From a virus (Duplodnaviria; Caudoviricetes): a DNA stretch of 64,000 nt. Under the pieces are notes generated by a model. It saw nothing but the letters and a program-made list of their open reading frames with translations. It did not search any database and was not told the origin of the DNA. Shown here in pieces: positions 36,180 to 63,391 of the stretch. Every line of letters starts with the position of its first letter. The stretch's first letter is position 1. The translations under genes were made by a program, and so were the position numbers. The stretch is taken from IMG/VR virus record IMGVR_UViG_2974703886_000001, positions 6,374 to 70,373 of that record; one strand, 5' to 3'.

Positions 36180-36271
36180 TGGTGAACGAGGGTCCGTTTG
36201 ATAGCCGTGAGGGAGACAAGATCAAGTACAACTTTGCCTCGGGAACTTCGCCGGGCTACAGGGGAGGAAGC

Positions 36272-36637
36272 ATGAGCGACCCGGTAACCCGCGCAAAAGC
36301 CGCGCTGGAAAGTATCGGAGATGGTCCGTGGACCATCGACTCCGAAGATGGCGAACCGATTATTCACGAAGCCCACCACTATGACTCGGCGGATGAGTGG
36401 TACGACGTGGACAGTCCAAACGGCGGATGGGTGGCTCACTGCGAAGACCTCCCAGTGGCTGAGTTCATAGCCTCTGCCCGCACTCTCATCCCTGAGCTGG
36501 TGGCCGAGGTTGAGCGTTTGCGCGCGCGGGAAACGCTAATACGGGAACTGGCGAATCGGCATGTCGGCGCACCGTGCGGCTGCAACGCCATCGCCCACCA
36601 GATCCTCGCCGCGCTGGATACCGGGGAGGAAGCATGA
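36272..36637 (+). CDS. Hypothetical protein (LVAEVERLR family)
   Basis: RBS GGAGG. Confidence 0.7.
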   Translation: MSDPVTRAKAALESIGDGPWTIDSEDGEPIIHEAHHYDSADEWYDVDSPNGGWVAHCEDLPVAEFIASARTLIPELVAEVERLRARETLIRELANRHVGAPCGCNAIAHQILAALDTGEEA

Positions 36638-46731: not shown

Positions 46732-47137
46732 GGGGCTGAATTGGTATCGACAGCGGATAGTGATGCTGGAGAAGCGTGCCGGGATGCAACGCCCGTAACA
46801 GTGCAACCCCAATAAGCGCCGACTACAACGACGCTGACTCGATGCTGCAGGCGAGCGCCTCGCTGCTCGCCGAGGCCGTGCTCACCGAGCGCGGTGCTCT
46901 CGTGGCTGCCTGAGAGGGCCGAGTCCGTTGTCCCACAAGCCAATCCCAGGGCGTGTGGTGACAGCGTGGCAAAACTGGGAGACCCGACTGCTCGTCGCCA
47001 GCAGTCGTAGCGAATAGGCGACAACCACTGGGTTCCGGTGTCGGTCCTGGAATCCAGCCGGTAGCAAGACCGACTACGCACGTAGAAGGCCAAGACTGAA
47101 CGTCGACTGGACTCGGGTTCGACTCCCGACAGCTCCA
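46732..47137 (+). ncRNA. ssrA: tmRNA (CCA not encoded); tag frame 46818-46913
   Basis: GGGGCTG/CAGCTCC acceptor with G3-U70; TTCGACT T-loop; AATAAGC-GCC resume site; tag ends LVAA-stop. Confidence 0.95.
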
Positions 47138-47287
47138 CGAACTCCCGCCGCCCCCAAGTGCTGAGGGCTTGCTGCAGGTGCCGGTACAGCGAAGGCCGGG
47201 GCGGGAGTACAGAGTTCCCTGCCAGGAACGCGTGTAACCACACATCCATCCATCACCTCCTCTCTCCTTGTAGTTGTAAACCCGAGG

Positions 47288-50292: not shown

Positions 50293-50666
50293 GCAAAATC
50301 CTTGTGGTAAGCCACGATCCGCGAACCATCCCGTCCGAGGCGTTGTGGTGGCGCAAGAGGCTGTACCCCTGCCGTGAGTATCCGAACTACTACTATGTCA
50401 TGCGTGCCGACGTGCCCGGTTGGGCGTACTCGGTCGAGTACTTCGACGGGCGCAATGACTGGACCTTCCCGTACAAGGTGAAGGTGAGTGAGAACCTGAA
50501 CATCGACCGCTTCAGGAACCCCGAGGCCCCACGGATTCGTGATTACAAAATCGACATCCTGGACGTGGTCCCGCCACTCTCAGATCCTCTCGGCTACTGG
50601 GAGCCGATCACGCAGCCTGGCGACTTTCAGCACCCGGAAGACACCCTCGTCTGGCTCCAGAGTTAG
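50289..50666 (+). CDS. Hypothetical protein
   Basis: RBS GGAGG. Confidence 0.6.
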   Translation: MSKILVVSHDPRTIPSEALWWRKRLYPCREYPNYYYVMRADVPGWAYSVEYFDGRNDWTFPYKVKVSENLNIDRFRNPEAPRIRDYKIDILDVVPPLSDPLGYWEPITQPGDFQHPEDTLVWLQS

Positions 50667-51081: not shown

Positions 51082-51230
51082 TCAAGCTCAAGGTGTTCGG
51101 CGTCGAAGTGGTGACGCTCGAGTTCGAAGTTCCTGACGGCGCAACGGAATTGGCACCGGTCGGCAAGGTGGTCGACAAGGGCGTGAACCGCATCAGCCGT
51201 TTCTGGGTCGACCGCATGCTTGGAAGGTGA
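51078..51230 (+). CDS. 50-aa hypothetical protein
   Basis: ATGA overlap; MIKLKVFGVEVVTL. Confidence 0.55.
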   Translation: MIKLKVFGVEVVTLEFEVPDGATELAPVGKVVDKGVNRISRFWVDRMLGR

Positions 51231-54787: not shown

Positions 54788-55086
54788 GCGGCCTCAGCCT
54801 CCTTGGCCCGCTTTCGTTCGGCGGCGATGTTCTTCGCCGTCCGGTTGATGCGGTGGACGCGCCGGATCTTCTCGGGGTAGAAGGTTCGGAAGGTCTCGTA
54901 GCCGAATGGCCCGCCGACGAAGGTCAGGTTCAGCCTGCCGTCCTTGGTGTACCGGGCGTACTTGAACCGGAACCGGCCACGCTCGCCCTTGATGGACACC
55001 TCAGTGTCGACGGTCAGCAGCTTGCCGTTCACCTCGACCTCCTTGAGGCAGTCGAAGTGAATCTTCTTGCTGCGCTTGACGTTCAT
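54784..55086 (-). CDS. Hypothetical protein
   Basis: GGGAGAGAAC RBS. Confidence 0.7.
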   Translation of the reverse strand: MNVKRSKKIHFDCLKEVEVNGKLLTVDTEVSIKGERGRFRFKYARYTKDGRLNLTFVGGPFGYETFRTFYPEKIRRVHRINRTAKNIAAERKRAKEAEAA

Positions 55087-55152
55087 GTTCTCTCCCTCTC
55101 TGGTGTCGGTGAATTGCGTTGATGCTATGCCGATCTGGTGATCAGTCGGCAT

Positions 55153-55187
55153 GAAGAAGCCCCGGCAGTCCTTGTGACTACCGGGGC
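55153..55187 (-). terminator. Leftward intrinsic terminator
   Basis: gccccgg / ccggggc stem, then CTTCTTC on the minus strand. Confidence 0.55.
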
Positions 55188-55212
55188 GTTGTCCTATTCA
55201 GTTTTCGCAGAG

Positions 55213-55232
55213 CAGTAAATAACCCACTGCCG
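55213..55232 (-). repeat. Conserved 19-mer copy 1 (CGGCAGTGGGTTATTACTG, one extra base)
   Basis: cagtaaataacccactgccg. Confidence 0.9.
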
Positions 55233-55236
55233 GGGG

Positions 55237-55302
55237 CTATCTGGCGACCCCAAGGGCCGCGATCACGAGGCCGAGGGCGGCCCCGAGGGTCATCGCAGTC
55301 AC
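55237..55302 (-). CDS. Putative ~20-aa membrane peptide
   Basis: AAGGAG RBS; MTLGAALGLVIAALGVAR. Confidence 0.35.
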   Translation of the reverse strand: MTAMTLGAALGLVIAALGVAR

Positions 55303-55946
55303 ACCACACTCCTTTCCGCAATTCGTGCGATTTCCTCTACTGGTGGCGCATGCTTCCTCAGCTTGCCTGCCGACGTGCAACGGACCTTGCGCCCGCACAC
55401 GGGGCACACTTCGTAGTCGCCGTCGTAGCGCCAGGGCATCCAGGTGCCGGTGCCTGGGCACTGCGTCGTCGGTCGGCGTCCGTACATGGTCCACTCGACA
55501 GGTACGCCGGGGAAGCATGACCGGCACAGGCGTGGGCCGTGCGCGGCGACCACGTCCTCTGTCGGTCTGCCTGAGAACTCAGCGAGCATGATCAGACGGG
55601 TGTGCTCTCCGATCTTGATGCACTCGCGGGTGCTGTGGATGTGGTTGCTTCGCACCTTGTAGTAGCGAGACCAGCGTCCGTGTGCAGCCCAGCGTCTGTC
55701 GGAGTACCGGATCACACTCTCCCAGTGGGCGATCTCAGTATCGAGGTGAGCCAGCCTGGCAAGCTGGGTCTCGGTGGCACGGCAAAGCGCATCCTCGTCG
55801 GACAGGCTGAGCCGTAGATCCCCTTGCTGGAAGTGAATCCGCCGCATCAGGCTGTCGCGGTCGATCAGGGCGTCATTGCACCGCTCGACCGCCTTCGCCA
55901 ACTCCACGTCGTTCTCCCGGATATCACTGATGGCCATGGCGACCAT
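55299..55946 (-). CDS. Hypothetical Cys-rich protein
   Basis: HIHSTREC, LCRSCF, CPGTG, CPVCG; RBS GGGAGG. Confidence 0.75.
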   Translation of the reverse strand: MVAMAISDIRENDVELAKAVERCNDALIDRDSLMRRIHFQQGDLRLSLSDEDALCRATETQLARLAHLDTEIAHWESVIRYSDRRWAAHGRWSRYYKVRSNHIHSTRECIKIGEHTRLIMLAEFSGRPTEDVVAAHGPRLCRSCFPGVPVEWTMYGRRPTTQCPGTGTWMPWRYDGDYEVCPVCGRKVRCTSAGKLRKHAPPVEEIARIAERSVV

Positions 55947-56280
55947 TCATCCCTCCCTAGTTACATGGTCGCCCGCCGTAACAGACGAGTCTCCACGGGG
56001 AGCGACCGCCCACCCTACCCCTGGTTTGAGGCAGGTCAGACCACAGCGTTTCCGCTGGTCAAGTCCTACTTCTACGGGTCAACAACCCCCGTGATGGGCG
56101 AGAGAGTATCACGTCAAGTCCTGCCGATAAGGAGCAAAGGAGCAAATCCGTTGGTCTATCTATCCACATCAAGATCATGCATCAAGATCTGGATAGATTC
56201 ATCTTGCCGAGAACCCTCTCGCGCTGGTGCCCGTGCCGGGGCCGATGTCCGGTTACGGCTCTAGTTCACGGGCCTGTTGC

Positions 56281-56427
56281 TCAGGCAGGCTTGCGATCAA
56301 GCCACTGGTTGCAGTTGTGGCAAATCGGCACCTGCCCGAGCGTCGGGTGCCAGCGAGTGGTCTTGGCTGTCAGCGGGCAGCCCTCGTGCCACTGGCATGG
56401 CACCTCCCTCTCATTCATCGCCGCCAT
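56281..56427 (-). CDS. 48-aa Zn-finger-like protein
   Basis: C...C...HP..G.VP.C..C; RBS GGAGG. Confidence 0.55.
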   Translation of the reverse strand: MAAMNEREVPCQWHEGCPLTAKTTRWHPTLGQVPICHNCNQWLDRKPA

Positions 56428-56695
56428 CGTCTGCCTCCACGTCGACCCAGTTGTCGGCGAACAGCCACAGTTCGAACTCCCAGGGCACCCCGTCGAGGGC
56501 CTGGGGAGTCCAGTAGATGGCGGGCACCATCTCCATGGTCTCCAGGTTGACGGCCTGACCCTCACGGACCCGATAGACCTGCAGTGGGTGCGCCCACCGG
56601 TCGGGCTTCGGGAACGGATCATCGGGTGACACGCGGTCGTTGATGATCTTGTCCCCGGCCTGGATGTCCTTGGCCTGCTTGCGAACTACTGCCAT
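56411..56695 (-). CDS. Hypothetical protein
   Basis: RBS GGAGG. Confidence 0.65.
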   Translation of the reverse strand: MAVVRKQAKDIQAGDKIINDRVSPDDPFPKPDRWAHPLQVYRVREGQAVNLETMEMVPAIYWTPQALDGVPWEFELWLFADNWVDVEADDGGDE

Positions 56696-56697
56696 GG

Positions 56698-56991
56698 TCA
56701 CGCGTCCTCCCATACCACGTCGGCACGAGCGCTTTCCAGCTCAGCCTTGAGATCCCGGTACACCTTCCGTGCCCAGTCCACCCCGTCGAACGTGATGTCG
56801 AACAGGGCGTCGTTGAACAGCCGCTCGAGGTCGTCGTCCCCGTCGGCGAGTGCCGCCACCAGCCGGAAGATCCGGTCCTCGTGGGCCTGGTACACCTCGT
56901 GGACGTACGGCTGTGCCGCGTTGGCCTCGTAGCGCTTGATGTTCTCGGCGACGATGGCCTCGATCAGGGCGTCGATCAGCTTGGTATCCAT
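56698..56991 (-). CDS. Hypothetical protein
   Basis: GGGAGAGAACAATG start. Confidence 0.75.
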   Translation of the reverse strand: MDTKLIDALIEAIVAENIKRYEANAAQPYVHEVYQAHEDRIFRLVAALADGDDDLERLFNDALFDITFDGVDWARKVYRDLKAELESARADVVWEDA

Positions 56992-57108
56992 TGTTCTCTC
57001 CCATGTGTCGTGTTCCGCAGTTCCGCTGCGGCCCGGTTGTGCTGAGCGCACAAGCAGGTGGCCACTGGCTGTGTCGACAGTGACCACCCTTGCCCGCTCA
57101 GAACGGGG

Positions 57109-57354
57109 TCAGATGTACGAACCGTCTGCCGGGAACGTCAGGCCGGTGGCCAGACGCTCTATCAGTGCGGGCACCTCGTCGGCAGGCACCTCAAACAGGT
57201 GCTCTTCCTTGGATTCCCGCTTCGTCCACTGCACGCCGCGACCAGTGACGGGGATGGTGGTGACCTCCCGGCTGATCACGATGGTGTCGTCCGTCGTCCG
57301 GTGGACGTGGTACTCGACCTCGACCCGACGCTCGCCGTTCGTCTCGACGCTCAT
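57109..57354 (-). CDS. Hypothetical protein
   Basis: AGGAG RBS; ATGA overlap. Confidence 0.65.
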   Translation of the reverse strand: MSVETNGERRVEVEYHVHRTTDDTIVISREVTTIPVTGRGVQWTKRESKEEHLFEVPADEVPALIERLATGLTFPADGSYI

Positions 57355-57524
57355 GCTGCACTCCTGATGTGTTGCGGCAGTTCCCAATTCGAGTAGCCCA
57401 GGTAGTCCCAGAAGACCAGAACGGCGGTGTCGTTGTACAGCCCGCCGCGTGTCTCCAGGACGGTGCCCGTCTTGCTGGTGTCACGGGAGTCCGTGACCTT
57501 CTGCTTGGTTGCGAATGCGATCAT
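57351..57524 (-). CDS. 57-aa hypothetical protein
   Basis: GGAGAGAACAATG start; not in ORF track. Confidence 0.65.
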   Translation of the reverse strand: MIAFATKQKVTDSRDTSKTGTVLETRGGLYNDTAVLVFWDYLGYSNWELPQHIRSAA

Positions 57525-57559
57525 TGTTCTCTCCTTGTCTCTCTTGCGTTTTCGCAGAT

Positions 57560-57578
57560 CAGTAATAATCCACTGCCG
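57560..57578 (-). repeat. Conserved 19-mer copy 2
   Basis: cagtaataatccactgccg. Confidence 0.9.
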
Positions 57579-57619
57579 AGGGTGGCCCAGACCTTCTGGA
57601 CCACCCTCGTCAGCCTCAC

Positions 57620-58060
57620 TCAGCCGTCCCAGCCGTCCGGCACATTGCCCGGTGTCCAGTCGTCATAGTCCCAGGTCAATATGCGGATGATGCTGCCGAG
57701 CAACCACGTGTCACTGTGGGCGTACTCCTCGCGCCCATACTCCAGGGTGCGGGCGGACGCCACGCTGGACAGGTACGAACTCACTTCGTGATTGCCATCA
57801 GCCCAGAGTTCCCACTCCTTCCAGAACACGGGCACCGTGGCACCGCGCCGGTCACCACGGAACCGGTAGTCGAAGTGGATCACCAGCTCTCGGTAGCCGC
57901 GCCGGAACACGAACGTGTCGGTTGCGGACACGTTGTCCTCACCCCAGACCTTGACCCCACGATGGATGTACGGACCCTCCTCGGGCACGTTCTGCTCGTG
58001 GTGGGTCTGCTTCCAGCCGTTGGCTTCGGCGACCTGCTGAATGATGGCGATGTCATCCAT
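57620..58060 (-). CDS. Hypothetical protein
   Basis: GGGAGAGAGAACAATG start. Confidence 0.75.
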   Translation of the reverse strand: MDDIAIIQQVAEANGWKQTHHEQNVPEEGPYIHRGVKVWGEDNVSATDTFVFRRGYRELVIHFDYRFRGDRRGATVPVFWKEWELWADGNHEVSSYLSSVASARTLEYGREEYAHSDTWLLGSIIRILTWDYDDWTPGNVPDGWDG

Positions 58061-58157
58061 TGTTCTCTCTCCCATTGTGTGAACCTCCGTTGTCCCTCAA
58101 CGGATTTGGAGGTGCCCCAGACCATATGGCTTGGGGCACAACCAGACTCGCTGAGAG

Positions 58158-58508
58158 TCACACGTACACCGCACGGTGCGCCAGGATGGCCACGTCGGAC
58201 CCCTCGAAGGGTTCCTCGGTGTCGGCGTAGACGAACCGGTCGTACTTGTACGGGTTGTACGTCACCTTGCGTGCGGAGCTGTCGAACGTGACAGCTTCGC
58301 CCAGCACCCAGTCACCGACAATCCCGGCGTGAACGTTCTTCTTGCGTTCCCGCAGGACACGCTGGCGACCAGCCTCGGACACCTTGCCCTCGGCGTTGCG
58401 GAGCACCACAACCTGGCTGTGTCCGACGACACGGCCCTTGTCCGGCCCCTCCAGGGCCTTGATGCTCCACAGGTGGCGGTGCAGGTTGTAGTACACGAAC
58501 ACACGCAT
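58158..58508 (-). CDS. Conserved phage hypothetical protein
   Basis: VYYNLH..LWS...GRQRVLRE.KKNVHA...YNPY. Confidence 0.8.
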   Translation of the reverse strand: MRVFVYYNLHRHLWSIKALEGPDKGRVVGHSQVVVLRNAEGKVSEAGRQRVLRERKKNVHAGIVGDWVLGEAVTFDSSARKVTYNPYKYDRFVYADTEEPFEGSDVAILAHRAVYV

Positions 58509-58557
58509 TGTTCTCTCTCCCTTGGTGATTGGGCGTCGACCGTGTATCGACGCGTAG

Positions 58558-58625
58558 CGCACCGTGGGTGGAGTCGAACCACCAGCAGCAGTAATAACCC
58601 ACTGCCGCAGCCAGATTCACGGGCG
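58558..58625 (-). ncRNA. D-arm-less tRNA-like element B (contains 19-mer copy 3, 58589-58607)
   Basis: GGTGG-TTCGACT-CCACC T-arm; closing CGCCCGTG/CACGG(T)GCG stem; 8-bp middle hairpin. Confidence 0.55.
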
Positions 58626-58636
58626 TCCCGAGGGGG

Positions 58637-59140
58637 TCAGGAGGGGTAGTCCTCGTAGTCCTCGGGGGTGATCACCGTGAGCGGTGACCCGAGCTTTCGC
58701 TCGTTTATCGGGGACGGGTGCAAGCCGCCGCCCAGACGGACCACAACGTCCGTTTCGACCAAGCCCCAGGTGAACCCCTTCGCCCGGTCGCGAGCTGCCC
58801 GCTGAGCGCCCTTGCGGGCCTCAGACGGGTTGAACCAGCGGACGCCGTCGCCCTTGCCGACACGCACCGTCGCGCCGTAGCGGGTGTCGACCCAGCTCCA
58901 GTCATCGACCGGGTTGCCATCGGCGTCGAACAACCAGCGCAAGGTGGTGCGACCGCCCGTCTCGGCCAGCTCTGCAAGGTGGTTGTAGAGCTGGGCCATC
59001 GTGACGTGCGCCCACTGGGACAGGAACCCATCGGTGTCGCTGCGTTCCCAGCTTTCCTGTTCGCGCTGGTAGCTCTGCTTGGCCATCGCCCGCCATTCCT
59101 CGGCGGTGTGATCAGTCGGCTTGTAGTAGTGCGTACCCAT
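58637..59140 (-). CDS. Hypothetical protein
   Basis: SWERSDTDGFLSQWA; conserved RBS. Confidence 0.75.
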   Translation of the reverse strand: MGTHYYKPTDHTAEEWRAMAKQSYQREQESWERSDTDGFLSQWAHVTMAQLYNHLAELAETGGRTTLRWLFDADGNPVDDWSWVDTRYGATVRVGKGDGVRWFNPSEARKGAQRAARDRAKGFTWGLVETDVVVRLGGGLHPSPINERKLGSPLTVITPEDYEDYPS

Positions 59141-59179
59141 TTCTTCTCTCTCCCTTCATTCTTCGTGGTTGGTGATACG

Positions 59180-59220
59180 AAAAATGCTGAAGGGCACTGA
59201 CTCTCAAGCCAGCGCCCTTC
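59180..59220 (-). terminator. Hairpin / possible terminator
   Basis: gaagggc / gcccttc stem, then CAGCATTTTT on the minus strand. Confidence 0.45.
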
Positions 59221-59232
59221 CGTACTCTCCGA

Positions 59233-59397
59233 TCACCTGGTGATCAGGGTCACCGTCCTCAGGTGTGGACGGACCAGCGTCACCCCACCGTTCGGCTTGC
59301 GGACAGTCAGTGCTCCAGGCTTGGCCTGGACCACGGTGCCCACCCATCCCTTCGGTGATGCGTCACTGACGTGAACCTGCGCACCCTCCCAGAACAT
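59233..59397 (-). CDS. 54-aa SH3-like hypothetical protein
   Basis: Conserved RBS. Confidence 0.65.
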   Translation of the reverse strand: MFWEGAQVHVSDASPKGWVGTVVQAKPGALTVRKPNGGVTLVRPHLRTVTLITR

Positions 59398-59486
59398 TGT
59401 TTCTCTCCCATCTCGTGAGTGAAAACGGTGAACACTCAACCACTCTCAGATCAGGTGACCCGAGAGTGGTTGCGAACCCAGCGTTT

Positions 59487-59645
59487 TCAGAACGGCGGGT
59501 CGTCGTACTCGGTGCCGGGCGGCAGCTTTGGTGTCGGCGGGCACTCCTGGCGTGCCAGCGCCAGCAGTACCGCCCGGTCCTGTTTGAATTGCGGGCACTC
59601 GCAGTAGTCGCGGGGCTGCCCGCAGCACGGTGCAATGGCAGACAT
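59487..59645 (-). CDS. 52-aa Cys-rich hypothetical protein
   Basis: AAGGA RBS; CCGQPRDYCEC. Confidence 0.5.
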   Translation of the reverse strand: MSAIAPCCGQPRDYCECPQFKQDRAVLLALARQECPPTPKLPPGTEYDDPPF

Positions 59646-59683
59646 GGGGTCAGTGTCCTTCGATCCGGTGATAACCCCGGCAG

Positions 59684-59702
59684 CAGTAATAACCCACTGC
59701 CG
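59684..59702 (-). repeat. Conserved 19-mer copy 4
   Basis: cagtaataacccactgccg. Confidence 0.95.
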
Positions 59703-59713
59703 GGGCCTGACGA

Positions 59714-60058
59714 CTAGCTGATGTCCCACTCGGGATGGTCGATGTACTCGATGGAGACCGCGCCAGCGTTGCCCATCCCGAAGTCTCCGAGGGGGGCGTA
59801 CGCGTACTCCTCCCTCATGTCTCCGTTCCAGTAGAGGGTGCCGCTGTAGTACAAGACTCGGTCGTCGTCGTACATCCGGAACGAAACCTGGTGTTCGTAG
59901 TTCGTGCCTAGCTCATCCCACTTTTGGGCGATGCGCTCGGCCTCATCCGAGAGGTTCGCGTCCGCTGGACCCACGGTGCCTTTGTCGTTCCAGCTCGGGT
60001 CATCTCCCGGCTCGAACAGGTGATCCTTGTCGATGATCCATGCGTACGGTGATGCCAT
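59714..60058 (-). CDS. Hypothetical protein
   Basis: FRMYDDD...YY.G...PL.DFG..NAG...IEY; conserved RBS. Confidence 0.8.
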   Translation of the reverse strand: MASPYAWIIDKDHLFEPGDDPSWNDKGTVGPADANLSDEAERIAQKWDELGTNYEHQVSFRMYDDDRVLYYSGTLYWNGDMREEYAYAPLGDFGMGNAGAVSIEYIDHPEWDIS

Positions 60059-60150
60059 TTCTCTCTCCCATCGTGAGGTGGTTGTGAGACAGCCCGATTA
60101 GGCAGCTCAGTGGCTCACTCGGACGGTGTGCCCGAGTGGCCAAGTGCGGT

Positions 60151-60414
60151 CTAAGCGGTGAGGGGTCGACGGTTCAGGCTGGCGTAGCCAAACGCGTTGT
60201 TGATAGCCAGGACGTAGTCCAGGCCGCCGACGTTCACGTTGTGCGTGTAATCCGAAGTGCCCCAAGGCTCGCCGTCCCGAGTGTGGGCATAGTCGGTCTC
60301 GTCGCCGTAGTCCCACTGGGCCAAGTGTTCGGCCAGCTCCTGGATGCCCAGGTCCGAAACCGCGGCGTACTCGCTGTCCTGGATGAACGCAGCTTCCACC
60401 CACAGATTGCTCAT
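60151..60414 (-). CDS. Hypothetical protein
   Basis: Conserved RBS. Confidence 0.75.
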   Translation of the reverse strand: MSNLWVEAAFIQDSEYAAVSDLGIQELAEHLAQWDYGDETDYAHTRDGEPWGTSDYTHNVNVGGLDYVLAINNAFGYASLNRRPLTA

Positions 60415-60443
60415 TTCCACTCTCTCCCTTCGGTTTTCGTGTT

Positions 60444-60530
60444 GGGTAATAACCCACTGCCGGTGAGAGTCGCAGGGCAGTAATAACCCACTGCCGGTGA
60501 AATTTGCAGATCAGTAATAACCCACTGCCG
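60444..60530 (-). repeat. Conserved 19-mer copies 5-7 at exact 34-bp spacing
   Basis: Starts at 60444, 60478 and 60512. Confidence 0.95.
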
Positions 60531-60591
60531 GGGCCTGCCGAAGGCCCATATGTAGGGGGTCTAAGTATCCGGTTTGGACCTGGTTCGGTCC

Positions 60592-60620
60592 ACTATACCC
60601 AGCGACTTAGGGTACCCTAA
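60592..60620 (-). promoter_or_regulatory. Putative leftward -10 (TATAGT) with adjacent perfect 14-bp palindrome TTAGGGTACCCTAA
   Basis: actata at 60592-60597; palindrome at 60607-60620. Confidence 0.4.
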
Positions 60621-60778
60621 TGCGATGCGATAGTTAGAGGGTCTATGCATCCCCAGTGGGCAGATTACACGGGCGTAATTCCCTGCCGACTCTCCCAGGT
60701 GACTCGCACACGTGTGCGACTAGGCCACCAATACGGGCACCTGGGCAGCTCGCCCAGGTACTCGTCTTGACAGTCCAG

Positions 60779-60949
60779 TCATCGCGCAGTGCGTTCCTGT
60801 TTCGCCCATCGAATTGCCGCATCGAAAGCGAGAATTGGCAACACGTAGAGCACAACACCAATTGCCCAGTGGACTGCTGCCAGATTGGCAGCCGACACCA
60901 ATGCGGCAATGGTGATCAGAACCACGAAAGCAATGCGTGCCAGTGTCAT
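60779..60949 (-). CDS. 56-aa membrane protein
   Basis: Two TM helices; conserved RBS. Confidence 0.7.
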   Translation of the reverse strand: MTLARIAFVVLITIAALVSAANLAAVHWAIGVVLYVLPILAFDAAIRWAKQERTAR

Positions 60950-61048
60950 TTCACTCTCTCCCATCGTGTGAATCGGATTGCCCGATTAGGCAACCAATAG
61001 CGCCACCTGGGCAGTGACTCCCAGGTGGCACGATGGCTGTCTAATCCG

Positions 61049-61219
61049 TCACGAATTCGCCCAGAGAACGCGGTCAACAGTGTTGGCCGGACTCCTGCCC
61101 CTGTCGTAATCCTCACGGTACGGATAGTCCGGTAGATCACTGATGGACACTCGCAATTTCCGTTGAACCATACGGTCAACAGTGGCGAGCCATTCCGCGT
61201 AAGTCTCAGTGCGTGCCAT
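61049..61219 (-). CDS. 56-aa hypothetical protein
   Basis: EW...VD......S.SDLPD..YR..YD.G.SP; conserved RBS; not in ORF track. Confidence 0.75.
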   Translation of the reverse strand: MARTETYAEWLATVDRMVQRKLRVSISDLPDYPYREDYDRGRSPANTVDRVLWANS

Positions 61220-61306
61220 TTCTCTCTCCCATCGTTGTGTGTTGAGTGAACCCGTTTAGGTCACTAAGCGGACACACGGACAATTGCCCGTGTGCCCGAT
61301 AGCGAT

Positions 61307-61918
61307 CTAATCCGCTTTCCCTCGAATTGCGATCCAAACTGCAGCTTGCATAGTCGACGGTGCGACTCCCGCATTGGCTGCAGCTTTCCGGTAAGCGTCC
61401 GAAATGCGTTCGTACGCGCCTGCCCAAGAGAGTGTCTGTTCCGCTTGTTCGGTGGTCACGTCCCCCAGGGCAGCACGCGCTGCCCAAATATCGACAGTGA
61501 CCGCATTCCCGTTTCCAAGAATGTTCTGGGCGAAACTCCAGATCTTGGGTGCCGTGAGTTTTTCCGGATTGGTTCCGCGCAATGCGTAGACAGGATTGTC
61601 ACTCGCGAGAATTCGCAATGCTCGCTTGTGATTTTCTGCCATGACACCGTTGCGCTTGTCCTTGCCGCGCAACAGGTTGTCCGCATCCAACAGGTTGTCA
61701 ATCCACCGAGTACGTGGAGAGTACGCGGCAATGACAGCCGCAACCTGTTCAACCGTGTGTCCAGTCTCATCGGCAGTACGTTCTGCCCAAGTGTGAGCGT
61801 CGACGTACCATGACGCACCCGCATTCCGCATCCATTGTTCAGCCGACTCCCAAAGTGTCGATATACGGATTGCCATTTCCTCAACGCTCAGTGAGTCGGA
61901 CTTGCGTGCGCGTGCCAT
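61307..61918 (-). CDS. Hypothetical protein, possibly HhH-glycosylase-like helical fold
   Basis: WY...AVIAAYSP..W..N; VTVDIWA; MQAAVW. Confidence 0.75.
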   Translation of the reverse strand: MARARKSDSLSVEEMAIRISTLWESAEQWMRNAGASWYVDAHTWAERTADETGHTVEQVAAVIAAYSPRTRWIDNLLDADNLLRGKDKRNGVMAENHKRALRILASDNPVYALRGTNPEKLTAPKIWSFAQNILGNGNAVTVDIWAARAALGDVTTEQAEQTLSWAGAYERISDAYRKAAANAGVAPSTMQAAVWIAIRGKAD

Positions 61919-62010
61919 TTCTCTCTCCCATCGTGGTTGGTGAATCCCCTGTGGAATAAGTCACAGGAGAAAACACACTCGGAATTTCCGAGTGTGCTTT
62001 CCTCAGTGGC

Positions 62011-62412
62011 TTATGCCGCTTGCCGTGCGGGCACGGGCACCGGAATTTCGACTTGCTCGACACTGTCCCAGATCGCTAGCTCGCCGCGTTCCTGGGCGAA
62101 GAACAGTGCTTTGTCCAGATCCTCGAAAGACTCGACAATGTCGACGTAGGTCAAACCATCGTTGACCCAAGTGCCCAATGCGTAGTCGGGAGTCCACACT
62201 CCCCGCAGGTCTGCCAGCTCGCGAATAGCACTGGCCAGTGCGCTAGGTCCATCAGCGACAGGGACGGTGCGCACGTGTGGCTTACCGACAGCAACCGTGT
62301 ACCGGTAGGGCAGCTTGTGCGCACGGAATACGTCACGTCCGTACGTTCCCCCACCATTGGCCAGAGTGTCGACAGCCATAGCGAAATGCTGATCAACGGT
62401 ATTGATGTTCAT
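62011..62412 (-). CDS. First gene of leftward operon (possible SAM-lyase-like fold)
   Basis: LGTW...YVD...A...AQ..GELAIWD; conserved RBS. Confidence 0.75.
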   Translation of the reverse strand: MNINTVDQHFAMAVDTLANGGGTYGRDVFRAHKLPYRYTVAVGKPHVRTVPVADGPSALASAIRELADLRGVWTPDYALGTWVNDGLTYVDIVESFEDLDKALFFAQERGELAIWDSVEQVEIPVPVPARQAA

Positions 62413-62522
62413 TGCACTCTCTCCCAGGTGACATGACCGGTAGTGATCCGGTCGGTTTACAGAACTGGTCTGTCTAGGAGATATGTGCTTGGACAAGCAC
62501 ATTCACGAAAGACAGACCATCG

Positions 62523-62582
62523 TGAGCACGGGCGGATTCGAACCGCAACGCGCGTGACCGCGCGCCAACCAATGCCGTGCCC
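62523..62582 (-). ncRNA. D-arm-less tRNA-like element A
   Basis: GGGCACG/CGTGCTC acceptor plus discriminator A; GCGG-TTCGAAT-CCGC T-arm; CGCGCG hairpin. Confidence 0.55.
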
Positions 62583-62947
62583 GATTTGGGAGTAGAGAGA
62601 GTTTCAAACCACCTGCTGCAGCTCAGAACGCTTATTGCAGCCAGTAGGACTTGACCCGTAAGGGTCGCCGCCCTGCCTACTGCCGAGTGTCCGCGACAGC
62701 TCCACGCAATACCGGACATGTCACCCGTACGGATACGGGGAGGGCAATCCTCACGGTCACGCGTGCTGCCAGTGCGGAATGTCTCGCACTCGGAGGTTAG
62801 TCCACTGTGTAGTTCTCAAACACCGGGGTGACGGTGCCCTTCCCCCGGAACGAACCGGGAGCGCGGCGACCGTACCGCAACGCGGCAATGTCAGTATGCG
62901 ACGACTACCGACACAGTGCAAGCACGGACAGACGAGAGTGTTGCGGT

Positions 62948-62971
62948 CACCTGGGCACCTGGGCACCTGGG
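62948..62971 (+). repeat. (CACCTGGG)x3 tandem repeat
   Basis: Read directly from sequence. Confidence 0.9.
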
Positions 62972-63391
62972 AACGGGTAGCAACGTCACGTCAGTACGTA
63001 GGTGCCAGATCTGCTAGCACTCGGCAGACAGACGAACGAGGGCACCGTAGGGCAGTGCTAGCGCACCGTGGTGCAAGCAATGTCCCAGGTCACGTGTGAA
63101 CGTCCCTGTAGGGCACGGGACGGAATGCCGCCGTATTGCCGCCCAGATCAAGATCTAAGCCACGAACACCATGTCTCGAGTGTGATTGCATAGGGCACAC
63201 CGTGATCTTGATTCTGAGGGCAATTGAGGGCCCAATAGGCCGCTAACAGGTGCTAGCAATAGTGAGCAGTATGTCTAACCATAGTTAGCTACCCAACAGT
63301 AACCGCCCGTGATCAGGCACGTTGAGCACGGCTAAGTAGTTAGCTGGGATGGTTAGACGGTCTACATGGCAGTCCTGCCTACGTAGGTAGT

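Follow-up and report, generated by a model that had tools for sequence, protein, structure and literature searches.

In this mycobacteriophage-like virus, the leftward early operon carries two short stretches that resemble tRNAs, and the question they raise is whether these form tRNA-shaped RNAs and, if so, what such RNAs would do within the transcript. We analyzed both in a window of 64,000 nucleotides (Table 1). The first, E1, lies in sense orientation in the leader of the operon, 110 nt upstream of the ATG of the first leftward gene (62412); its region was judged non-coding because the open reading frame overlapping it had a GC content that was flat across codon positions. The second, E2, is also non-coding and on the sense strand, and is located in a 130-nt gap between the end of one gene (58637) and the start of the next (58506).

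Table 1. Coordinates of E1, E2 and their parts in the window, and of element A in phage L5 (L5 coordinates).
Feature	Position	Strand	Basis or detail
E1, 60-nt tRNA-like element	62523..62582	-	Sequence; MFE fold alone and in context
E1 acceptor, 5' strand	62582-62576	-
E1 linker, 11 nt, GG twice	62575-62565	-
E1 central hairpin, anticodon-arm position	62549..62564	-	6 G-C pairs, 4-nt loop
E1 T-arm, loop TTCGAAT	62531..62547	-	4 Watson-Crick pairs plus outer U.C
E1 acceptor, 3' strand	62530-62524	-
E1 A73	62523	-
Pyrimidine tract, 5 nt upstream of E1 (tentative)	62587..62597	-	Leader MFE fold
E2, 68-nt tRNA-like element	58558..58625	-	Sequence; MFE fold; bulged-type descriptor match
E2 acceptor, 5' strand	58625-58618	-
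E2 linker, 9 nt, UGG inside	58617-58609	-
E2 central hairpin, 8 bp, anticodon-arm position	58585..58608	-
E2 single U	58584	-
E2 T-arm, 5 bp, loop TTCGACT	58567..58583	-
E2 acceptor, 3' strand, one bulged T at 58561	58566-58558	-
Cluster A element A in L5	51,133-51,226		End of Pleft leader, just ahead of gene 89

The minus-strand sequences given for both elements in the earlier note agreed exactly with the letters of the window, and the layout proposed there (a closing stem, a linker containing GG, a hairpin that is not an anticodon arm, and a T-loop) was that of the MFE folds (E1, -32.5 kcal/mol, z -2.1; E2, -32.3 kcal/mol, z -3.2), which survived refolding within the whole leader and the intergenic region, respectively. 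When both strands were folded, the minus strand was better than the plus strand by 6-7 kcal/mol, in line with the strand preference given in the earlier note. Standard scanners did miss both elements, as had been anticipated: ARAGORN and Rfam at the gathering score reported just a tmRNA at 46732-47140. When Rfam matches were admitted up to E<=10, E1 matched tRNA-Sec at 22.1 bits, which is below threshold, E2 matched no family, and the RF00023, RF01684 and Y-RNA models matched neither element. Together, these data supported the assignment of E1 and E2 as tRNA-shaped elements that have neither a D-stem nor an anticodon and are placed on the RNA-sense strand.

The earlier description needs correction at the E1 T-stem; that of E2 has five pairs. 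In E1 the outer pair is U.C, and an alternative pairing of G 62575 with C 62531 gives an acceptor branch of 8 bp and a T-stem of 4 bp, which is the better reading. The E1 central hairpin reaches 8 bp when two G.U pairs are included, and no 7-nt loop can be drawn in it; the helices of the fold comprise 8 + 8 + 4 pairs with no mismatches. The E1 wobble pair is G2.U71, accompanied by G3-C70, and E2 has C3-G70 at the corresponding acceptor position, so that neither carries G3.U70. The statement that the primary sequences of the two differ needs a qualifier, as the E2 middle hairpin is not specific to the element: it is one copy (core 58591-58606) of a dispersed 16-nt phage repeat with seven co-oriented copies, whose sequence is conserved, yet not every copy forms a stem. 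In the leader MFE fold, the pyrimidine tract upstream of E1 pairs with the Shine-Dalgarno region of the first gene (62417-62426); against shuffled leaders this duplex was not significant (p ~0.06), and another site was preferred.

Anticodon-less mini-tRNAs with the frames of E1 and E2 were identified in unrelated viral contigs, on the sense strand and 48-78 nt before a gene. Two of them, L012 and L015, which scored 31.8 bits with RF00005, have in common with E1 a 3' 21-mer and, in the 5' acceptor strand, six of seven bases, with pairing preserved at the one that differs; the E1 frame is close to identical to that of L012. A third, L020, has the 5' strand and a 3' 22-mer in common with E2, and its acceptor/T-arm frame is identical to that of E2 at 7 + 17 + 7 positions, the bulge excepted. 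The E1 3' 22-mer had no occurrence among 185,579 species genomes, nor did the L020 24-mer in the species-genome search, and the E2 22-mer was found in Nocardia tRNA-Arg(CCG) only. Among relatives of the flanking gene, the spacers consisted of a hairpin and a start-sequence, with no tRNA-like element. Covariance models R1 and R2, built from linker-only families, did not recover full E1 or E2 and matched the T-arms only: the E2 T-arm was the best R2 match in the window (17.5 bits, E 0.022, local only), and E1 scored 11.8 bits (E 1.2) with a linker-only-family model.

Conserved, unannotated elements of similar kind were found in two further groups of phages. KVP40-like Vibrio phages have a 45-nt mini-tRNA, in whose alignment 95% of cells were paired and 7 of 12 pairs had double changes. 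In Cluster A mycobacteriophages (L5/D29), the Pleft transcript carries a tRNA-like RNA of ~100 nt, element A, which in L5 measures ~94-106 nt and combines an acceptor of 6 bp with several hairpins in its interior; the covariation count gave 98.8% paired, with double changes in 4/5 T-stem pairs and 3/5 D-like pairs. The same transcript carries an unannotated 46-nt mini-tRNA, element B, ~45 nt before gene 88 in L5, where it scored 17 bits with RF01684, below threshold. The formal count covered the KVP40-type element and element A; for element B, a hand-made pair table showed both-side changes at acceptor pairs 2-71, 3-70, 5-68 and 6-67. The sister elements are kept by compensatory changes, the evidence of covariation coming from the sister phages and not from E1 and E2 themselves. 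Their positions in L5 parallel those in the window, as A closes a non-coding leader like E1 and B precedes a gene like E2. The Cluster A Pleft leader (L5, D29 and StarStuff; PMC5712189) is a setting like that of E1, being long, non-coding, at the right end, transcribed leftward and before the early genes. Element A is longer than E1 (60 nt), and the likeness is one in kind, not shown sequence homology.

Could so simple a shape have arisen by chance in spacers rich in stem-loops, where a T-loop-like 7-mer and a short closing helix would imitate a tRNA? When the 70-kb genome was dinucleotide-shuffled 600 times, a strict descriptor (T-loop, T-stem of at least 4 bp, perfect 7-bp acceptor, 8-45-nt linker) was expected 0.09 times per shuffled genome, and E1 was its sole perfect-acceptor match in the genome; a bulged-acceptor descriptor with a 5-bp T-stem, the E2 type, also gave 0.09. 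A relaxed descriptor gave 0.31 matches per shuffled genome, the T-loop motif by itself was not enriched (4 observed, 2.2 expected), hairpin-rich spacers are not represented by shuffles, the E2 closing helix is imperfect, and R1 and R2 did not recover the full elements, all of which leave some room for coincidence. However, there are two matches, each intergenic and sense-oriented, and the identity of frame with L020 and near-identity with L012 also count against it. We consider it unlikely that E1 and E2 together arose by chance, although for either one singly the statistics are not overwhelming, and pure juxtaposition is in our view a distinctly improbable account of the pair. Somewhat less improbable, but still unlikely, is that they are decaying, functionless relics of tRNA or tmRNA genes whose anticodon arm was destroyed by an internal deletion or insertion. 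A real tRNA-Arg(CCG) matches the E2 T-arm and part of its acceptor, this acceptor is bulged and a repeat has been inserted mid-element, and E1 resembles L012 minus one T-stem base. Yet all the remaining helices are intact, the transcribed strand and the type of position are those of the conserved L5 and KVP40 elements, and the phage has no tRNA genes, so there is no recent source; moreover, useless DNA is quickly purged from phage genomes. Lastly, the feature might act as DNA, be it as a binding site for a protein, as an attP core or as a structure resembling an origin, which we regard as very improbable. The repeat at the E2 center is conserved without always forming a stem, suggesting that its sequence is what is recognized, perhaps in the DNA, and tRNA 3' fragments do occur in phages, as in the DS6A attP region. 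In contrast to that fragment, both acceptor strands are present here, more than an attP core requires, and the G.U pairs favor the RNA-sense strand. As neither 3' half copies a bacterial tRNA end, and host tRNA ends were unmatched, E1 and E2 were rejected as attP cores.

The only described mycobacteriophage precedent for the layout is the TLD-only ("CDS-less") tmRNA of DS6A (Hudson, Lau & Williams 2014, PMC4131195), which we located at JN698994 28478-28556. Like E1 and E2 it is intergenic and does not encode CCA, and its parts follow in the same order: an acceptor of 7 bp, a D-loop analogue that has UGG but no stem, a single non-anticodon hairpin, a short joint, a canonical T-arm, the acceptor 3' strand and A73. 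Unlike them, it retains G3.U70 together with the conserved TLD motifs, and its RF00023 score is 43.2 bits. The analogy with a tmRNA tRNA-like domain drawn in the earlier note therefore stood as to shape and failed as to identity, as both elements lack G3.U70 and match RF00023 nowhere; E1 and E2 as tmRNA TLDs were ruled out. The present phage also has a complete tmRNA besides them. The shared order of parts is one reason to ask whether E1 and E2, once released, are stable small RNAs with a role in trans. As decoys or sponges they would occupy a protein able to read the tRNA elbow or acceptor; candidates are SmpB, which has been proposed as the target of TLD-only tmRNA, as well as tRNA-modifying enzymes and a tRNA-directed host defense or toxin. 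Strong inhibition of tmRNA by a similar molecule, which may titrate SmpB, is noted by Hudson et al. [quoted passage not shown] Against this, neither element has the conserved TLD motif beside the D-loop, an SmpB sponge would also block the phage's own full tmRNA, the phage has no SmpB gene, no promoter or terminator frames either element, and the processing step of the explanation that we prefer would still be required. A role in trans is unlikely, about as much so as decay.

Other tRNA-like RNAs offer comparisons. YrlA and related bacterial Y RNAs, tRNA mimics with no role in decoding that are also present in mycobacteriophages, are acted on by RNase P and by enzymes that modify tRNA (Chen et al. 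2014, PMC4201824; RF02553). They differ from E1 and E2 in adjoining a Ro60 gene and having a long Ro-binding stem; the present genome has no TROVE/Ro60 gene, and no Y-RNA match was obtained for either element. The mascRNA and MEN-beta 3' modules (RF01684) are alike in concept, that of a tRNA-like module at the end of a long non-coding RNA, with no RF01684 match for E1 or E2. The eukaryotic mascRNA, at the end of MALAT1, retains a cloverleaf whose anticodon loop is reduced, and its cleavage by RNase P yields the 3' end of the upstream RNA and a small tRNA-like RNA. The mode of action that we propose is that of the t-elements of plant mitochondria, tRNA-like structures in mRNAs, essentially an acceptor stem and T-arm. 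They are found at either end of mRNAs, 5' or 3', where they are believed to guide cleavage by RNase P, RNase Z or both (Forner et al. 2007, PMC1920247). The t-elements are organellar, unrelated in sequence, and have experimentally mapped ends, whereas E1 and E2 are known from sequence.

In L5, the 3' end of element A (51,133-51,135) matches the left end of the Pleft RNA peak, as defined by published probe coordinates, not mapped ends. This peak is an abundant, stable RNA of ~500 nt, and according to the authors it is not clear what defines its 3' end, a canonical terminator being absent; a tRNA-like structure is not mentioned in that report (Dedrick et al. 2017, PMC5712189). The coincidence lends indirect support, by analogy, to the suggestion that E1 and E2 may punctuate the transcript. 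They are not general punctuation, since only 2 of ~15 operon gaps carry such an element. The E1 T-stem of just four pairs and the restriction of the R1 and R2 matches to T-arms were counted against a processing role.

The acceptor/T-arm half of a tRNA, with its elbow, is the recognition target of RNase P, RNase Z and the CCA-adding enzyme. We propose, with about even confidence for and against, that E1 and E2 are signals for tRNA-end processing and stability. They would be cis-embedded mimics of the top half of a tRNA, transcribed within the leftward early RNA, each with a 12-bp acceptor/T-arm coaxial helix, a canonical T-loop and a GG linker that, like a D-loop, could close the elbow. What stands at the anticodon position would be dispensable; in E1 it is a short GC hairpin and in E2 a copy of the phage repeat. 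Host tRNA-end enzymes would recognize them, RNase P acting on the acceptor stem at its 5' side, and RNase Z or 3' exonucleases, followed by the CCA-adding enzyme, acting past the discriminator; the E2 bulge, two pairs from the acceptor 3' end, might hinder either RNase P or RNase Z. If this proposal is correct, E2 would be a processing site between two genes, and a cut at E1 would detach the first open reading frame from the long, non-coding leader at the right end, leaving a nuclease-resistant, tRNA-like 3' end on the upstream RNA or a released species of ~60 nt.

Re-reading of the sequence gave the two tRNA-like elements of the leftward early operon, E1 (60 nt) and E2 (68 nt), as the earlier note had transcribed them, and folding each element alone returned the structure proposed there as the minimum-free-energy fold (E1, -32.5 kcal/mol, z -2.1; E2, -32.3 kcal/mol, z -3.2). 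The same folds recurred in longer context, when either the whole spacer or 288 nt of leader was folded. Folding of both strands also bore out the assignment to the sense transcript, as the minus strand was 6-7 kcal/mol more stable than the plus strand. The T-arm described for E1 was present, with the correction that its outer pair is a U.C apposition. The E1 branch is 8+4 (or 7+4 plus U.C), and the spare C can pair with G8, with 12 stacked pairs kept; this 8/4 branch explains why the weak Rfam match of E1 was to tRNA-Sec (22.1 bits, E 0.59). E1 has its wobble at G2.U71 instead of at G3.U70, the alanine mark, and this is accompanied by G3-C70 and A73. E2 has a 7+5 branch with one acceptor bulge, C3-G70 and G73, and the T-loops are TTCGAAT (E1) and TTCGACT (E2).

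Both elements are intergenic and on the sense strand, 110 nt (E1) and 51 nt (E2) upstream of the next start codon, with E1 closing the non-coding stretch of the right end shortly ahead of the first gene. A coding reading was rejected because the ORFs over the elements either had a flat codon-position GC signal or overlapped real genes out of frame. Scans around both elements identified no framing promoters or terminators above shuffled background. When the leader was folded to minimum free energy, the first gene's ribosome-binding site (62417-62426, minus strand) paired with a pyrimidine tract (62587-62597) that lies 5 nt upstream of E1, and the pairing enclosed E1 and two hairpins; a 5'-end cut at E1 would free the binding site. 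An anti-Shine-Dalgarno role near E1 is thus no more than tentative, as duplex scores compared with those of 1000 shuffled leaders were not significant (p of about 0.06) and a different site was preferred.

Coordinates of the tRNA-like elements and associated features (positions without a prefix are in the window; L numbers are fetched viral loci or contigs)
Feature	Location	Strand	Remarks
E1, 60 nt	62523-62582	minus	tRNA-like element
E2, 68 nt	58558-58625	minus	tRNA-like element
tmRNA	46732-47140	plus	ARAGORN, Rfam
16-nt core repeat copies	55216, 57562, 58591, 59686, 60446, 60480, 60514 (55216-60529)	minus	sequence
L012-type mini-tRNA	L012:428-479; L015:797-847; L021:428-478	plus; minus; plus	acceptor, D-arm, T-arm; anticodon arm absent
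L020 mini-tRNA, 44 nt	L020:13853-13896	minus	E2's acceptor and T-arm
KVP40 mini-tRNA, 45 nt	L022:453-498 = AY283928.2 about 171,869-171,914	plus	also L024, L025, L026, L027
L5 element A, 94-106 nt	NC_001335 51,133-51,226 = L036:1634-1727	minus	tRNA-like RNA
L5 element B, 46 nt	L036:927-973 = L5 about 50,426-50,472	minus	mini-tRNA
Element B counterparts	Odin L048:88-128; Mulciber L050:82-125; Gail L051:79-127		mini-tRNA
DS6A TLD-only tmRNA	L034:28478-28556	plus	between gp33 and gp34; unannotated in record

In the virus record (70,373 bp, 62% G+C, the window being its last 64 kb), genes of mycobacteriophage families and of Gordonia phage families form a mosaic, and no close relative was visible in the collections searched (megablast and blastn against phage records, protein-anchored viral contigs, and tblastn). 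[quoted passage not shown] Across 55085-62425 (minus), at least 12 leftward genes have a start-associated sequence that ends in GGGAGAG about 7-11 nt ahead of their start codon, and a stem-loop lies directly past the preceding stop codon in each spacer. A metagenomic relative of the operon (L030:8473-12155) has ten successive small genes with near-identical spacers of about 80 nt, each with two hairpins and a start-associated sequence of its own, and none of them tRNA-like. In the operon studied here, only 2 of about 15 spacers contain a tRNA-like element.

As the earlier note had predicted, the tRNA scanner ARAGORN called neither element and found no tRNA in the window, where a tmRNA was the sole RNA gene identified by ARAGORN and Rfam curated thresholds. 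The Rfam tRNA model (RF00005) matched neither element at its curated score or at E<=10. The elements do hold one trait of canonical tRNAs, a 12-pair acceptor/T-arm branch with a TTCRANY-type T-loop closed by G53-C61. A D-arm is absent and a 7-nt loop cannot be drawn on the central hairpin of either; on these grounds, and with no scanner match, a decoding tRNA was excluded. The likeness to the tRNA-like domain of tmRNA drawn in the earlier note held for the stem-less D-loop analogue and the helix that replaces the anticodon arm, but not for G3.U70, nor for the tmRNA model (RF00023), with its conserved 5' D-loop motif and its 3' motif ahead of the T-arm, which had no match within 58000-63000 at E<=10. 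G3.U70 is present in the tmRNA that this phage encodes and likewise in DS6A, whose TLD-only tmRNA is the sole mycobacteriophage precedent in print (PMC4131195); as a positive control, the DS6A RNA scored 43.2 bits on RF00023. Thus, while the DS6A RNA and E1/E2 share an identical order of parts, E1 and E2 are not tmRNA tRNA-like domains in the family sense. DS6A also carries a separate tRNA 3' fragment ending in CCA (L034:36363-36417, minus), in a gap at 36,210-36,540, which resembles an attP core. An assignment to YrlA or Y RNA failed, since the 70-kb genome has no TROVE/Ro60 gene and neither element matched a Y-RNA family.

Searches for homologues of E1 and E2 among phage records (blast), protein-anchored viral loci, tblastn matches of the flanking genes, and homologues of the upstream gene with their contigs identified none. 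Exact searches with the T-arm and 3' acceptor strand matched real tRNAs (KVP40-type tRNA-Leu and Nocardia tRNA-Arg) and also anticodon-less mini-tRNAs in unrelated viral contigs. Two of these (L012 and L015) have the frame of E1 plus a D-arm, without an anticodon arm; they scored 31.8 bits on RF00005, received no ARAGORN call and lie 78 nt upstream of a gene. The sole match of a gapped-pattern search of metagenomes was the L012 contig itself. The L020 mini-tRNA is the exact frame of E2 minus its bulge and repeat hairpin, and lies about 48 nt ahead of a RecT-like/exonuclease/helicase operon. The 3' 22-mer of E1 and a 24-mer of L020 were absent from all bacterial species genomes searched, and for E1 an origin from a host tRNA or attP was rejected on this result; the E2 T-arm matched only Nocardia tRNA-Arg(CCG). 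Both acceptor strands are present in E1, E2 and the contig mini-tRNAs, unlike the attP-type tRNA fragment of DS6A.

Running the descriptor of the branch (T-loop, inner 4-bp T-stem, directly stacked 7-bp acceptor and 8-45-nt linker) over the fetched loci brought up three further families, the KVP40, L5-A and L5-B types. The KVP40 mini-tRNA is unannotated and lies between KVP40.0307 and KVP40.0306. Vibrio phages of the KVP40-like (schizo-T4-like) group keep it, at a distance of 29 nt ahead of a conserved gene of 70 codons. Its acceptor has 7 bp and is joined to the T-arm by a linker of 12-14 nt in which UGGU is invariant. Among five divergent versions, 95% of cells were paired, compared with about 50% in slid controls, and both sides had changed in 7 of the 12 pairs. 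In the KVP40 relative D482, the start of an annotated CDS runs through the mini-tRNA.

The remaining two families are in Cluster A mycobacteriophages. L5 element A lies inside the transcript of the leftward early promoter, Pleft, at the end of its non-coding leader, and is also present in D29 and StarStuff; it was found in 85 Cluster A records and annotated in none. Its Rfam match to tRNA-Sec was as weak as that of E1 (22.1 bits). Across 11 diverse records, 98.8% of cells were paired, with both-side changes in 4/5 T-stem pairs and 3/5 pairs of a D-like hairpin and an invariant acceptor. Element B, which precedes gene 88 of L5 by about 45 nt and is followed by a stoperator, belongs to a family of 41-49 nt (acceptor, linker, T-arm and G73) in the style of E2, with a GCCC acceptor start in most members and the same T-loop. 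In a comparison between subclusters, with Odin, Mulciber and Gail, its acceptor showed both-side changes at 2-71, 3-70, 5-68 and 6-67 in a hand-made pair table without a shuffle control; E2-type pairs were tabulated by hand in a script, MAFFT having misplaced the 5' strands. L5 element B also gave a weak mascRNA-family match.

Covariance models were built from the KVP40 group (R1) and from that group with L020 and three elements of Cluster A added (R2), with hairpin inserts outside the models. R1 reached beyond its own family to L020 (22 bits, E 0.006). Neither model recovered full-length E1 or E2; only T-arms were matched. The top R2 match in the window was the E2 T-arm, as a local alignment only (17.5 bits, E 0.022), and E1 scored 11.8 bits (E 1.2). 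In build, E1 and E2 fit the phage "top-half" tRNA mimics, in which an acceptor is set on a canonical T-arm with a GG linker and the anticodon arm is absent or replaced. This build is common to L012/L015, L020, the KVP40 group and the L5-B/Odin/Mulciber/Gail family, whose elements are sense-strand, intergenic and a few tens of nucleotides upstream of a gene.

The central hairpin of E2 was also reinterpreted: it is present, as noted earlier, but it is a passenger rather than a dedicated arm, being a copy of a dispersed 16-nt repeat with seven co-oriented copies against 0.19 expected. When extended, the consensus spans about 32 nt, and three of the copies form a tandem array, spaced 34 nt apart. 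Some copies outside E2 have no stem and are conserved in sequence even there; from this pattern, the repeat may be recognized by a sequence-specific protein, in the manner of a stoperator, and not serve simply as a hairpin.

How E1 and E2 are best explained was weighed beginning with chance. In 600 dinucleotide shuffles of the genome, which understate the hairpin density of the operon spacers, the E1 type, with a perfect acceptor, and the E2 type, with a bulge and a T-stem of 5 bp, each occurred at 0.09 per shuffled genome, and the relaxed types pooled at 0.31; the T-loop motif alone was not enriched. A chance origin of the pair is unlikely but not impossible, because there are two matches, both non-coding and both in the sense orientation. 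We consider chance, a concern mainly for E2, to be quite improbable. What is kept in elements of the E1/E2 type is the 12-pair acceptor/T branch, the T-loop and a GG linker able to close the elbow, and the part in the anticodon position is freely replaced. It is established that the kept parts are the ones read by RNase P, RNase Z and the CCA-adding enzyme. As the kept parts are those read by the enzymes and the replaced part is one they ignore, we favor cis-acting processing and stability signals, by analogy with t-elements, as a reading with roughly an even chance of being correct. Its weak points are the T-arm-only recovery by the covariance models, the bulged E2 acceptor and the small number of spacers occupied.

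We regard as unlikely an RNA released to act in trans as a decoy, including by titration of SmpB as proposed for the TLD-only tmRNA; the phage genome has no SmpB gene. A similarly low likelihood is given to functionless relics. A role at the DNA level is very improbable. Returning to cis-acting processing, plant mitochondrial t-elements (PMC1920247) are the kind of signal proposed for E1 and E2, and the literature searched contained no account of elements of this kind in the early transcripts of phages. On this reading, E1 and E2 would belong with a known kind, tRNA-like processing modules, and would not be a categorically new thing.

In L5, D29 and StarStuff, Pleft yields an extremely abundant, stable non-coding RNA of roughly 500 nt; its 3'-end definition was called unclear, a canonical terminator is absent, and mRNA downstream drops by >90% (PMC5712189). 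The leftmost of three L5 RNA peaks seemed indispensable, and toxicity and failed deletion are on record for the L5 right-end RNA region (PMC5712189). A tRNA-like structure is mentioned nowhere in that paper (PMC5712189). By published coordinates rather than a mapped end, L5 element A appears to finish, on its 3' side (51,133-51,135), where the abundant Pleft RNA peak has its left end, which would be the expected outcome of a tRNA-type 3' end. E1 occupies the equivalent place, where the non-coding right-end stretch closes before the first gene. We tentatively propose, as a possibility that is still on the doubtful side, that modules of the E1/L5-A type are the 3'-end and stability signal of mycobacteriophage right-end non-coding RNAs, a throttle on read-through and the source of a released, active mimic. 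Host RNase P and RNase Z, with CCA addition, would act on the modules to set and stabilize the 3' ends of early right-end RNAs, and processing at E1 or L5 element A would limit how much read-through reaches the early genes. The small anticodon-less tRNA mimic freed in this way might have an activity of its own, which could account for the toxicity and failed deletion in L5.

Signals of tRNA shape that direct processing within messenger and non-coding RNAs are established in plant mitochondria and in MALAT1. If host tRNA-maturation enzymes read E1, E2 and their counterparts in L5, D29 and KVP40, these phages would have RNA ends and stability set without nucleases of their own. How the dominant Pleft RNA of L5 and D29 acquires its 3' end, and why downstream mRNA falls, would then become directly testable, and the elements would add a class overlooked by tRNA scanners and genome annotation.
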